Positions 30,001-33,000 of a stretch of DNA of 50,105 nucleotides are shown piece after piece. The DNA is from a virus. Its lineage: Duplodnaviria > Heunggongvirae > Uroviricota > Caudoviricetes. Each line of letters opens with the position of its first letter. The stretch's first letter is position 1. The stretch lies in IMG/VR virus record IMGVR_UViG_2630968414_000007; one strand, 5' to 3'. Made by a program: the position numbers.

Positions 30001-33000
30001 AGCTCTCTGGCTTTTTTATCGCGCTGCGCTTTGTAGGTGAGCGCGTTGTCACGGTAATGGTTTGTTGCCAGCCACAGCGCACCATAGCCAACCGCCAGGA
30101 CAATAATCACCACACACAGAACACGGTTCATCTCTCTTTCACCCCACCAGTCCCGATAACGTCAGGACTCGCCAGGCGGTGGAAAAGAAAATGGCAACCA
30201 GCATGACTAAAAATGAAATGCCGACAAGTACACAGAGGCTCTTCACCAGCGTTATGAGTTTATCTGATATCATTAGCCACCCCATCAATCCGCCTTTGTT
30301 ATTTTCCCTTTGCCTGTATCAGCCAGGACAAAATCAATCAGCATATTCGCTTCATTTACCAGCGTACGGATTTTTGATACATGCGCGGCTTTAACCTGTT
30401 TCCACTCATTCAGCCCGGTAGCAAACACACTGGCAATGTTTTTATCCCGTTTCATGTCAGCACAAGCCTGGTTGAGTTCTTCCATCACGCTCATTTTACG
30501 GGGATTAACGACAAAACCCTTCGTCCAGTACTCGTAAAGAACATCGTCGCACTCTTCCTGATACCGGATGACCTTATCGCGGATTTCGGGTTTTACTTTG
30601 TTGGGATTAATGGTTTGTAGCCAGCCGGCAAGTTTTCGAAGTGGCATGGACACCATATTGCGTTGTTTCCCATCCTCAGCAACCATAACGATTTCCGTTA
30701 TAGTTGACGCAAAACGCTGTCTTAACTTAGCCAACTGTGATTGCCAGGCCAGCCCCATCCCCGCAACGACAGGTTTCATGGGAACGTATGGTTCGCCATT
30801 ATGGTTAACTACATAAAGAGAGTTGCCGTGAAACGGCACGGCCATCATATTCATCGGTTATTTCCTTTTAGTGATGAACCTTGTCTCACAGGAATCCAGC
30901 CCACAGAAAGGCACCGACAGCCAAACCGGTATCCTCAAGGGTCATCCTGAAAGGTTCTGTGTTGTGAGATGCGCGTGAGATGCGCAGAAATGACAAAGGC
31001 ATCATTACGGTGCCTGAGTGTTAAACAACTGTTTTGACTTTATTCACTTACATTTTGCCAATTTGCAGGATTTCGTGTTATCCGTCCATGTAAGCAAACC
31101 TCATTTTTCAGCAAAATATTCTGCTTATCTGTCGATTCCCCAGCACGCCAGCGCGCTCTCCTGGTCACGACGGGATACCTGACCGTAACAGTTATTTGAG
31201 CGAATACGGCAGTCCCTGCCACCGTCCTTAATCCACCAGCGAATCGCTTCGCAGGCACCTTTTCGATCTCCTGCATTAATCCGTCTGTAAAACGTCGACG
31301 GGAAACACTTACCGGGGCCAATGTTGTACGGACAGAATGACGCGATCCCCGCTTTCTGGGGTTCGGTCAGCGGCACTCTGATGTTTTTCTCCACCCATGC
31401 CAGCGCCTTATCACGCTCAATGGCGTTAACCCGGTCGCATTTTTCCTTCGACAGCTTCATGCCAGGAATAACAGGCTTACCATCCCCCCGGGTGGCTCCA
31501 CGGCAGATGGTCCAGATACCCGCACCATCACGGTATGCTGTGGTGTGGTTACCTTCCTTTTCATCCAGAAACTGGTCGAGGATTTCAGGCGCAGACGCCC
31601 CTGCACCAATCAGCGCCAGAACGGCAGCCGACAGGCCGTATCTGATTTTTGCGTTCATGGATATTTATCAGGGTTTATCGATTTCAAATCCCTGGATATG
31701 TTAAGTCTTCAGGCCAGCGGTGGAGTCTTCAGAGAACCCGTAATTATTCCCGGTAGTTTTCCTCTGTAGGTTATCAACACATCCTGCGCCTCTAAAATTA
31801 CGGGACGCTTTTCCGGTAACGGACCATCCCCTTCACATAACCCGGCAGCAACATCCATGAAAAACTGCTTCGCCTGCTTTTTCGCCTCAGCTTCGTAAAA
31901 CTCCAGCGTGGCACCTTCAGTACGGTCAAGACTAATCGCCACATCTGGCAACAACAGTGACGGATACCCACCAATTTCCGGTGCCACAGTAACAGTAATC
32001 TTATCCGGGTAATTATTTATCCCTTTAACAACCAGTTCGTATTTTTTCTTCATCACTTTACTCTCCCCGCGCCGCCTTACGCCGGTCTTCTTTAATCTTG
32101 AAATACAGGTTCGTCAGATATGTCAGCAGCCCAAACAGCAGACTCCCCAGCACGCCTATCGCCACCCACTGGGACGGAGAGACTTTGTCCAGCAGCTGCA
32201 GTAACCAGTATCCCGTCCCCACCGCTGACGTGGTGTATGACACACCTGTTGTGATTTTTTCCATCTGATGTATGTCTCCGTCACCGCCGACAGAAAATGA
32301 AAGTAAAGAAAAACAAAAAAGCCGCCAGTGTCACCCACTGACGGCCAACGCCGGGAGCCGTGATTATGGCATTCAGGCTCTGCTAAAAATGCCAGATAAC
32401 ATTCCGGCCACCCCCTGATTCAGGTTATAAATGACACAATATCTTGACAACATCCGTCACTGTCTGTCAGAAAATGTACTGCCATATAGAAGCAACATGT
32501 GAAGTACATCTATCCTTTTGAGCCAGCACCTCTCCACCGAAAGTCAGTGCTGGCTGTTTTTTTCCTTAATAAAGCATCTGTAACTGAAACAATCCGCATA
32601 TTGATAATATATTGACAGGCATCATTGCTGTCTGTGAAAAATAAGTCTCTACAAACATATAAGGCCTTTTAGCCAGCGTCTTCTTTCAGGTCAGTCGCTG
32701 GCTCTTTTTTTATTATGCTGCCGGTGCATTTATCTCCAGCACCAGACTTTCTATCTCAACGCCATACGCTGCATTTTTTGTAACATCCGTCAGCGTCAGC
32801 GCATTCAGTCCCAGTGTCAGACTGTCTTTTATAACCTGGAATGCCGGGCCAGCCACTCCATTCAGTTTCGGAGTAACCGTGGCACTGCCGGCGGTGAACA
32901 CCAGCTCCAGCGTCTGCCAGTCGTTACCGTAATCGCCGAACTCCCCCAGCTTCGTGTTTCCGGCTTTCCTGTGATGCATCAGATTCACTCTGCCGTCAGT

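Follow-up and report, generated by a model that had tools for sequence, protein, structure and literature searches.

A probable pasA locus between the esterase and holin genes of a lambdoid prophage, with a candidate tandem paralogue of PasA and a putative terminator ahead of the holin

What is encoded in the highly structured interval between the SASA esterase gene and the class II holin gene S of the viral sequence analyzed here (IMGVR_UViG_2630968414_000007; 50,105 nt, hereafter the window)? Three hairpins and two promoter-like modules stand out there, all far above chance in folding, pattern scans and shuffles. By alignment, the interval is 99% identical to the PP2 interval of E. coli E2348/69 to which the small RNA PasA has been mapped. 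According to the ORFs and the annotation of identical DNA, PasA is flanked by the esterase and holin genes and lies antisense to the late genes; this placement has already been described in the literature, and all three terminators are annotated in the GenBank record of phage 434 (OL657226.1). The interval is thus very probably the known pasA locus of lambdoid prophages, with three transcription units. The features picked out by the first-pass annotation are real, but largely known already; what modest novelty there is lies in module 2 as a separate gene, the remainder being ordinary and mostly known.

Roughly one complete E. coli genome in eight carries the locus, usually in several copies. 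Among 185,579 species representatives searched with a 19-base promoter pattern, the tandem arrangement was found only in Escherichia albertii, and the remaining 19 matches were single and in unrelated taxa. A 14-base pattern was too unspecific for IMG/VR: single matches there are mostly chance, and only double matches 167-168 nt apart represent the locus. Rfam gave no match in the window at the gathering threshold and none in 32200-32800 at E <= 10; PasA is absent from Rfam 15.

On the plus strand, the pattern TTGACA-N10-CTGTCTGT occurs in the 50 kb only at 32444-32467 and 32612-32635 (expected number 0.04; two matches in 0 of 100 shuffles), and downstream of each come an AGCCAGC(A/G)...GCTGGCT stem and a run of seven T's (at 32521-32563 and 32671-32711). 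The first-pass annotation had described just such a pair of units, each with a later AGCCAGC stem-loop and T run, and had suggested that they were two small antisense RNA genes or relics of duplicated terminators. “Duplicated” was right: the global alignment score of module 1 against module 2 is 32, compared with a mean of 6.5 (sd 2.3, maximum 18) for 500 shuffles of module 2, indicating that the two are a tandem duplication that takes in the promoter as well. Neither module was reported by a consensus promoter scan, because their -10 hexamers are poor (CAGAAA and GAAAAA, with an 18-nt spacer and TGT before each); since a perfect -35 and an extended -10 TG still do not reach the full consensus, the sites are called “promoter-like” here.

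Judged by its sequence, module 1 is the published sRNA PasA. Its promoter-like site (32444-32475, plus strand) consists of a -35 TTGACA at 32444-32449, CTGTCTGT at 32460-32467, and either an extended -10 (TGT plus CAGAAA, 32465-32473, 18-nt spacer) or an alternative -10, GAAAAT, at 32470-32475 with a 20-nt spacer. The site is nearly invariant over 31 sequence variants, while the RNA body is variable, and its position agrees with the RNA-seq 5' end at 32479; according to Zhu et al. (10.64898/2026.05.13.724894), this end may come from processing rather than initiation. The 85-nt RNA (32479-32563, plus strand) is of the E2348/69 allele type, identical to E2348/69 PasA in the alignment, and the published coordinates 743499->743415 of that strain correspond to window positions 32479-32563. 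It comprises a variable 5' region (32479-32518), the published seed GCCAGCACCU (32522-32531) and a terminator with a 9-bp stem (32521-32529 with 32547-32555) and a U7 run (32557-32563); in eight variants all cells of the stem are paired, with two compensatory pairs. The published northern probe, GCCAGCACTGACTTTCGGTGGAGAG, is the exact reverse complement of 32531-32555.

Sequence identities, structures, inter-module homology and conservation were computed here, and PasA expression, Hfq dependence and targets are taken from the literature. PasA has been validated by northern blotting and is Hfq-dependent in E2348/69 (PMC8550237; preprint 10.64898/2026.05.13.724894); its expression and Hfq-dependent stability were established for the identical sequence in that strain. 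By extension, PasA would be made in the lysogen from the TTGACA/extended -10 promoter, directed away from S, as an 85-nt Hfq-dependent base-pairing sRNA ending at its own terminator, with partial read-through of that terminator giving a 236-nt “minor” form (32479-32714, plus strand) that ends at the terminator of module 2. The published 3' end of the minor form (743264 in E2348/69) maps by alignment to about 32714. The plus-strand 3' ends foreseen by the first-pass annotation, at 32563 and about 32711, accordingly match the published major and minor ends.

A possible target lies next door. Within its 3' end, the esterase mRNA contains GGUGCUGG (32736-32743, minus strand), which is complementary to the PasA seed core CCAGCACC (32523-32530), and the published RIL-seq target motifs of PasA include the same site (CUGGUGCUGGA / CUGAUGCUGGA) for two E2348/69 esterase genes. 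The case for this site is the exact 8-mer complementarity together with the published motif; RNAduplex predictions pairing PasA and module 2 with this mRNA yielded only meaningless long duplexes.

Is module 2 a gene in its own right? Its promoter-like site (32612-32642, plus strand) has a -35 TTGACA at 32612-32617, CTGTCTGT at 32628-32635 and a -10 of TGT plus GAAAAA (32633-32641, 18-nt spacer), with AAAAAT at 32637-32642 as an alternative. The predicted RNA, of about 64-67 nt (32645-32711, plus strand; the 5' end is deduced), ends in a terminator with a stem formed by 32671-32678 and 32696-32703 and a U7 run at 32705-32711, abutting the esterase stop codon at 32713-32715. The module folds at -16.5 kcal/mol (z = -3.7). 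A PasA/PasC covariance model (R1), from whose building module 2 was excluded, matches it at 32632-32709 with 30.4 bits (E = 1e-4 in the 50-kb window, filters off) and also finds it, at 28-32 bits, in 9 of 16 PasA/PasC-bearing phage contigs. Module 2 can accordingly be regarded as a shortened tandem paralogue of PasA with a TTGACA/TGn promoter-like site of its own. Its sequence hardly varies, with at least 99% identity in 611 of 774 E. coli records.

Hfq-binding data are available from E. coli O157:H7 Sakai, in which Tree et al. (2014; PMC4104026) reported the orphan Hfq-CRAC peaks EcOnc51 and EcOnc52. EcOnc52 (1181998-1182075, minus strand) maps onto module 2 in prophage Sp4, where IS629 stands in place of module 1 and the module 2 promoter-like site is intact beside the IS629 junction; the site is also kept in IS-flanked plasmid relics. 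The 5' edge of the peak lies within about 1-3 nt of the start predicted by the promoter-like site, and its area is about that of the EcOnc51 peak over PasA. In the RIL-seq data the entry pasA.E2348C_0688.IGR corresponds to the module 2 stretch; it is always RNA2, with a fragment covering about 32684-32709. From the promoter-like site, the EcOnc52 signal in the module-1-less Sp4 and this RNA2 behavior, we infer that transcription likely initiates independently at module 2. The suggestion of two small antisense RNA genes was in this sense essentially right, module 1 being published PasA and module 2 an Hfq-bound paralogue corresponding to EcOnc52.

Two interpretations of these data need to be weighed. 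One is that module 2 is no longer a gene but a decayed duplicate, now serving only as a back-up terminator, with all of the Hfq signal contributed by the 236-nt form of PasA. The PasA mappers indeed treat the module 2 stretch as the 3' part of the minor isoform, the module 2 -10 is poor, and the 5'-region diversification of PasA is absent from it. Several Sakai prophages carry identical copies of module 2, which also makes the assignment of reads to Sp4 ambiguous: the EcOnc52 reads could derive from 236-nt read-through elsewhere. Against this, the TTGACA-N10-CTGTCTGT geometry is exactly that of PasA, the promoter-like site has been retained beside the Sp4 junction and in the plasmid relics, the EcOnc52 edge falls where initiation at this site would put it, and the near-equality of the two peak areas is above what a minor read-through fraction would suggest. 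A decayed duplicate is therefore possible but the less probable interpretation. The balance tips, without great confidence, toward the other one, in which module 2 is a separate Hfq-binding sRNA gene that hardly varies, about 65 nt long and the third paralogue after PasA and PasC. On this view it would have a promoter of its own and, owing to a distinct single-stranded 5' region (UCUCUACAAACAUAUAAGG), a target set of its own. Its assignment to the PasA tail would then explain why it escaped notice, and the locus would be a tandem sRNA array in which the PasA copy diversifies its 5' region by allele replacement and module 2 stays fixed. Module 2 probably yields a separate Hfq-bound RNA, and its terminator in addition brings PasA read-through to a halt right at the stop codon of the esterase gene.

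The third unit belongs to the late-gene strand. The first-pass annotation had noted a hairpin specific to the minus strand, with a U-run, about 50 nt before S, and this was borne out. The predicted intrinsic terminator (32305-32346, minus strand) has a stem-loop at 32320-32346 and a U-tract at 32305-32319: read from 32346 to 32320, an 11-bp stem with a 5-nt loop, GGCCGUCAGUG-GGUGA-CACUGGCGGCU, is followed by UUUUUUGUUUUUCUUU, and 55 nt separate the end of the stem from the S start codon at 32264. The minus-strand fold (-20.5 kcal/mol, z = -5.2) was equalled by none of 200 shuffles. There are two G-U wobbles in the stem; on the plus strand one of these becomes an A-C mismatch, the fold weakens to -13.4 kcal/mol and no U tail follows. 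In 78 of 78 related phage contigs, S is preceded at 46-56 nt by a hairpin with a T-rich tail; its 24 sequence versions preserve the pairing, and it occurs whether or not a PasA/PasC module lies upstream. Phage 933W has a hairpin of different sequence at the same place. The weak T tails of some relatives (CCTGTTGT, ACTTGTTG) mean that termination efficiency may be low in these. At the sequence level the window's hairpin is a strand-specific intrinsic terminator, and the fixed distance from S amid varied upstream contexts places it at the 5' edge of the lysis cassette.

Such a terminator probably shields the lysis genes, and we infer both this insulating role and its relief by Q. In the lysogen it would halt transcription arriving from the upstream tRNAs, TerB, the PasD/STnc100-like RNA and the esterase gene, keeping the holin and lysis genes silent; after induction, Q-modified RNA polymerase would read through it. 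It is found throughout the holin family and would account for the expression of accessory genes in lysogens without leakage into the lysis cassette.

The first-pass annotation had gone further and read this hairpin as a second tR'-type terminator, a relic marking a Q-pR'-tR'-S arrangement that existed before the tRNA/TerB/esterase block was inserted. It is indeed an intrinsic terminator of the late strand, and Q-modified polymerase has to override it; the accessory block between Q and S occupies the classical moron site of Tree et al. (PMC4104026). However, a promoter-like site (36123->36095) and a tR'-like terminator hairpin (36043->36020) already lie immediately downstream of Q, and there are two further late-strand terminators after the tRNAs and the STnc100-like RNA, and at least four in all between Q and S. 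The pre-S hairpin itself is 3.7 kb from Q, not adjacent to Q/pR'; the minus strand upstream of it has no promoter meeting the scanner criteria within the interval; and its tie to S holds in all 78 contigs despite their differing upstream content. The relic reading is thus improbable. Its place at the 5' edge of the lysis cassette fits the moron picture, yet the pre-S hairpin is not evidence for the insertion of this block.

Between the terminator and S, the holin leader (32265-32304, minus strand) has a Shine-Dalgarno GGAG at 32276-32279, and the phage 434 record places the ribosome-binding site at the same offset. A weak hairpin may form over this Shine-Dalgarno sequence in the folding model, but it is not significant (z = -1.8 here, +0.1 in 933W). 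Could the interval instead encode a small protein, with the hairpins incidental? A mechanical ORF scan does list an ORF of 48 aa at 32272-32418 (plus strand), but its start is antisense to the S ribosome-binding site, and variants otherwise at least 95% identical carry 1-nt indels within it, in the A-run near 32314-32320 and at CCACCCCC / CC-TCCCC near 32409-32411, which would shift the frame from one variant to the next; a protein-coding role is very improbable. A further candidate, the Sakai peak EcOnc10, offset-mapped to about 29267-29315, was rejected: no structure was found there, and collinearity between the window and Sp12 may not hold in that region.

As a whole, these findings on the PasA locus leave current concepts unchanged. 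In both EPEC and EHEC, RNAs of the PasA family rank with the most abundant partners of Hfq, and their contacts include virulence mRNAs (T3SS and bfp genes). Treating module 2 as a paralogue distinct from PasA would put right the copy numbers and targets assigned from RIL-seq and CRAC data, and would provide a tidy example of the birth of an sRNA through tandem duplication.

How does the locus compare with known systems? Lambda-type tR' and the pR'-tR' short RNAs (6S RNA; StxS of Stx phages, PMC7547250) likewise involve a late-strand intrinsic terminator overridden by Q. The pre-S hairpin is unlike tR' in being tied to S rather than Q, at 3.7 kb from Q/pR', and in having no consensus-passing promoter of its own. 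AgvB and AsxR (RF02702, RF02703) resemble the Pas RNAs in being short, Hfq-bound and prophage-encoded, at the late-region moron site and antisense to late genes, with a conserved 3' and a variable 5' part; they differ in position, being located upstream of the esterase gene and next to stx or STnc100-type RNAs, and in being anti-sRNAs, a sponge activity not known for PasA or module 2. Their Rfam models matched neither the window at the gathering threshold nor 32200-32800 at E <= 10. The 933W-type antisense module beside the esterase (L127) has only its position and a similar stem (CCGCCAGCG...CGCTGGCGG) in common with the PasA/PasC family; with no family-model match at E <= 1 under default filters, it was rejected as a member.

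The closest relatives are the Pas RNAs themselves. Module 1 matches PasA of E2348/69 (Pearl Mizrahi et al. 2021, PMC8550237; Zhu, Shabalina & Storz 2026, 10.64898/2026.05.13.724894) in sequence, strand, flanking genes, length, terminator and seed, with no difference between them. In those papers, Pas genes are typically single per prophage region, and module 2 is treated only as the 3' end of the 236-nt isoform or as an “IGR” entry. In Sakai, EcOnc51 maps to the 3' half of PasA-2 in Sp12 and EcOnc52 to module 2 in Sp4; both were entered solely as sRNA predictions that have a Rho-independent terminator and lack northern validation (PMC4104026), and were later cited jointly as “PasA homologues.” A search of paper texts found no mention of EcOnc51/52. 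PasC (E2348/69 PP5) combines a PasA-type promoter and 5' body with the terminator stem (AGCCAGCG...CGCUGGCU) of module 2 and its position against the esterase stop codon. It is one module, with a different loop, where the window has two, and mosaics exist (for example, L071). PasC thus resembles the unduplicated state, or else a recombinant of the two modules, which is also the place it would take if module 2 is a separate gene.

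The window is an O157:H7-type E. coli lambdoid prophage whose late genes run on the minus strand. Just left of 36200 is the gene for a Q-type antiterminator, followed by three tRNA genes (35647-35896), a TerB-family gene (35042-35503), an STnc100/PasD-like RNA (Rfam RF02076; 34701-34873, minus strand, 101.8 bits) just upstream of a 616-aa SASA/NanS-p-type esterase gene (32713-34563), and then, beyond the interval of interest (32265-32712), the class II holin gene S (68 aa, 32058-32264), a YdfR-like gene, lysozyme and spanins. Other Rfam matches are DicF (45832-45883, plus strand, 76.7 bits), the sok antitoxin of a hok/sok locus (38812-38986, minus strand, 116.9 bits) and an ALIL pseudoknot, an IS3-family frameshift element (3777-3893, plus strand, 121.5 bits). 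The 448-nt interval is without annotation in RefSeq. Of 5426 complete E. coli genomes, 699 contain it, at 3312 places in all (median five per genome). A plus-strand ORF of 48 aa (32272-32418) was considered as a gene and rejected: it is broken by 1-nt indels among otherwise nearly identical variants, which indicates that the interval is non-coding.

The hairpins and the two plus-strand promoter-like modules that the first-pass annotation had described here were borne out in all parts by folding z-scores, shuffles and site counts. The pattern TTGACA-N10-CTGTCTGT occurs on the plus strand at 32444 and 32612, with no third site in 50 kb (expected number 0.04), and downstream of each is an AGCCAGC(A/G)...GCUGGCU stem followed by U7. 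The two modules are homologous end to end (alignment score 32, against 6.5 +/- 2.3 and a maximum of 18 in 500 shuffles), the RNA body being about 20 nt shorter in module 2. In both, the TG of CTGTCTGT may act as an extended -10 ahead of poor hexamers (CAGAAA and GAAAAA, spacer 18 nt), which is why a consensus promoter scan missed them. Among 185,579 species-representative genomes the tandem pattern was matched in one, Escherichia albertii, in agreement with the published confinement of the Pas RNAs to Escherichia and Shigella.

Module 1 can be identified from published data. The esterase-holin interval of prophage PP2 in EPEC E2348/69 matches this one at 99% identity, and PasA has been mapped there at 743499 to 743415 (85 nt, major) and to 743264 (236 nt, minor; Pearl Mizrahi et al., PMC8550237, table S6). 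Carried through the alignment of the two intervals, these ends fall at 32479-32563 for the major form and at ~32714 for the minor one, and the published northern probe GCCAGCACTGACTTTCGGTGGAGAG (same table), when reverse-complemented, matches 32531-32555 exactly. Since both coordinates and probe map onto it, module 1 is, by its sequence, PasA; a 3' end had been foreseen at 32563, precisely where the published RNA stops. PasA has been confirmed by northern blot, depends on Hfq, reaches far higher abundance in virulence-activating conditions, and has 41 RIL-seq partners (PMC8550237). Its proposed seed, GCCAGCACCU, corresponds to 32522-32531 and overlaps the 5' arm of the terminator; the listed target motifs include one in the 3' end of the neighboring esterase mRNA (PMC8550237), where the window has GGUGCUGG (32743-32736), a complement of the seed core. 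The pasA and pasC genes directly adjoin the holin/lysozyme operon, and the STnc100 relative pasD is ~2.2 kb off on the far side of the esterase (Zhu, Shabalina and Storz, 2026 preprint, 10.64898/2026.05.13.724894); the window has exactly this pasD - esterase - pasA order.

Is module 2 a separate sRNA, or the tail of PasA? It shares the promoter geometry of PasA, and its predicted RNA (~32645-32711) has a clean terminator fold (-16.5 kcal/mol, z = -3.7). A covariance model made from PasA, PasA-2, PasC and related variants, with module 2 left out, matches it at 30.4 bits (E = 1e-4; whole window, filters off). Of 73 holin-relative loci, 16 are PasA/PasC-bearing contigs, and in 9 of these the model also matches module 2. 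In prophage Sp4 of E. coli O157:H7 Sakai, IS629 has taken the place of all upstream sequence up to 22 nt from the -35 of module 2, and EcOnc52, an orphan peak from Hfq-CRAC (1181998-1182075, minus strand; Tree et al., 2014, PMC4104026), lies exactly over the module. The 5' edge of this peak is ~1-3 nt from the start predicted by the promoter-like site, and in area it resembles EcOnc51, over PasA-2 in Sp12. Together with the identity of module 1, the Hfq peak supports the earlier reading of the two units as small-RNA genes. In E2348/69, the RIL-seq entry pasA.E2348C_0688.IGR is the module 2 stretch, with five interactions, in each of which it takes the second-RNA position of the chimera (PMC8550237); one example is the fragment 743267-743294 (window ~32684-32709) joined to escD. 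By itself, module 2 has 2304 occurrences across 677 genomes; identity is at least 99% in 611 of 774 records. It is also identical in several Sakai prophages, so that the reads assigned to Sp4 could be read-through transcripts of other copies. On this evidence module 2 is likely to be a separate sRNA, and the balance tips modestly toward its being transcribed independently. A copy 92.6% identical is also found, with a PasA terminator tail and the last ~87 nt of the esterase gene, in an IS-flanked relic adjoining the uilS lactonase gene on ~100 plasmid copies in E. coli (NZ_CP027339.1, ~2975-3210).

The remaining hairpin, just before S, is on the late strand: GGCCGUCAGUG-GGUGA-CACUGGCGGCU (32346 to 32320, minus strand), followed by UUUUUUGUUUUUCUUU. 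Its 11 bp fold at -20.5 kcal/mol (z = -5.2), with none of 200 shuffles as stable. As had been claimed, it is complete on this strand alone: one of its two G-U wobbles becomes an A-C mismatch on the plus strand, which folds at -13.4 kcal/mol and has no U tail. Of 80 IMG/VR contigs with holins at least 94% identical, 78 have enough upstream sequence, and all 78 have a hairpin (-11 to -23 kcal/mol) and T-rich tail ending 46-56 nt before the S start. Their 24 different sequences retain the pairing through compensatory changes, and many have G-U wobbles that make them functional on the late strand only. Further upstream the content varies (PasA and module 2, PasC, a 933W-type module, or none); the fixed place before S despite these differences argues that the hairpin is part of the lysis-cassette 5' border.

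The first-pass annotation had taken this hairpin for a second, or relic, tR'. This reading is not supported, as a pR'-like site (TTGCAA-17-TATATT, 36123 to 36095, minus strand) and a tR'-like hairpin (AAAACCCGCCCACAAGCGGGTTTT plus T run, 36043 to 36020, minus strand) already directly follow Q, with more late-strand terminators between. A second promoter-like site (TTGCAA-17-TATTAT, 35906-35934, minus strand) precedes the three tRNA genes, and terminators follow both these (35633 to 35616, minus strand) and the STnc100-like RNA (34676 to 34658, minus strand); a Q-modified polymerase thus has at least four terminators to pass, of which the pre-S hairpin comes last. Its most economical function would be insulation: accessory-gene transcripts of the lysogen would stop before the holin, and after induction Q would override the terminator.

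Between the PasA promoter and this terminator, a conserved late-strand stretch (32347-32420, minus strand) forms a long hairpin (-44.8 kcal/mol, z = -2.9, terminator included); just upstream on that strand, TTGTCA-15-TATAAC overlaps the PasA -35 in reverse and is too weak for a promoter call. A small hairpin at 32272-32295 (minus strand) could cover the S Shine-Dalgarno GGAG (folding not significant, z = -1.8), and 933W-type leaders have a different one (CUUCCG...CGGGAG) at the matching place (also not significant, z = +0.1).

Against Sakai Sp12 the interval has 13 differences, 12 of them inside 32476-32518, the 5' part of PasA; this cluster is the difference already published between PasA and PasA-2 (Zhu, Shabalina and Storz, 2026 preprint). 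In 31 sequence variants, taken from IMG/VR and from genomes, there is hardly any change in the promoter-like region, terminators and remaining interval, and the PasA 5' body falls into a few discrete alleles, shuffled relative to terminator type. Terminator stem pairing (72 of 72 cells, versus 18-49% with partners slid) is kept by two compensatory changes, A-U to G-C between PasA and PasC types, and C-G to U-A in the PasA-like terminator of a single-module locus (L081). Another locus (L071) joins a PasA-type 5' part to a PasC-type terminator; the mixed 5' bodies and terminators of these two and a third (L003), compared with window 32479-32563, point to recombination within the sRNA gene.

Much of this is on record: the literature or a curated record already has PasA, an Hfq peak over each module and the three terminators (phage 434, GenBank OL657226.1, has the same interval at 98.7% identity with all three hairpins annotated as terminators), which makes the finding ordinary. 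Little beyond that is new: module 2, so far folded into PasA, is probably an invariant paralogue in its own right, PasC combines parts of both modules, and a strand-specific terminator right before S is general in this class II holin family.

Phage 933W (NC_000924.1; 4128-4262, anti-late strand) has a non-homologous but analogous single module against the esterase stop codon: TTGACA-17-TAAAAA, an RNA of ~85 nt, the stem CCGCCAGCG...CGCTGGCGG and T7. Versions of it, 73-100% identical, are present in about 20 IMG/VR contigs; the PasA/PasC covariance model did not detect it, and it was not seen in the part of the Tree et al. (2014) list consulted (PMC4104026). PasC, in E2348/69 PP5, is one module where the window has two: its promoter and 5' body are as in PasA, and its stem (AGCCAGCG...CGCUGGCU) and placement against the esterase stop codon are as in module 2. 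The simplest reading of these sequences is that one ancestral antisense sRNA gene at the esterase 3' end underwent tandem duplication, followed by recombination that mixed the parts.
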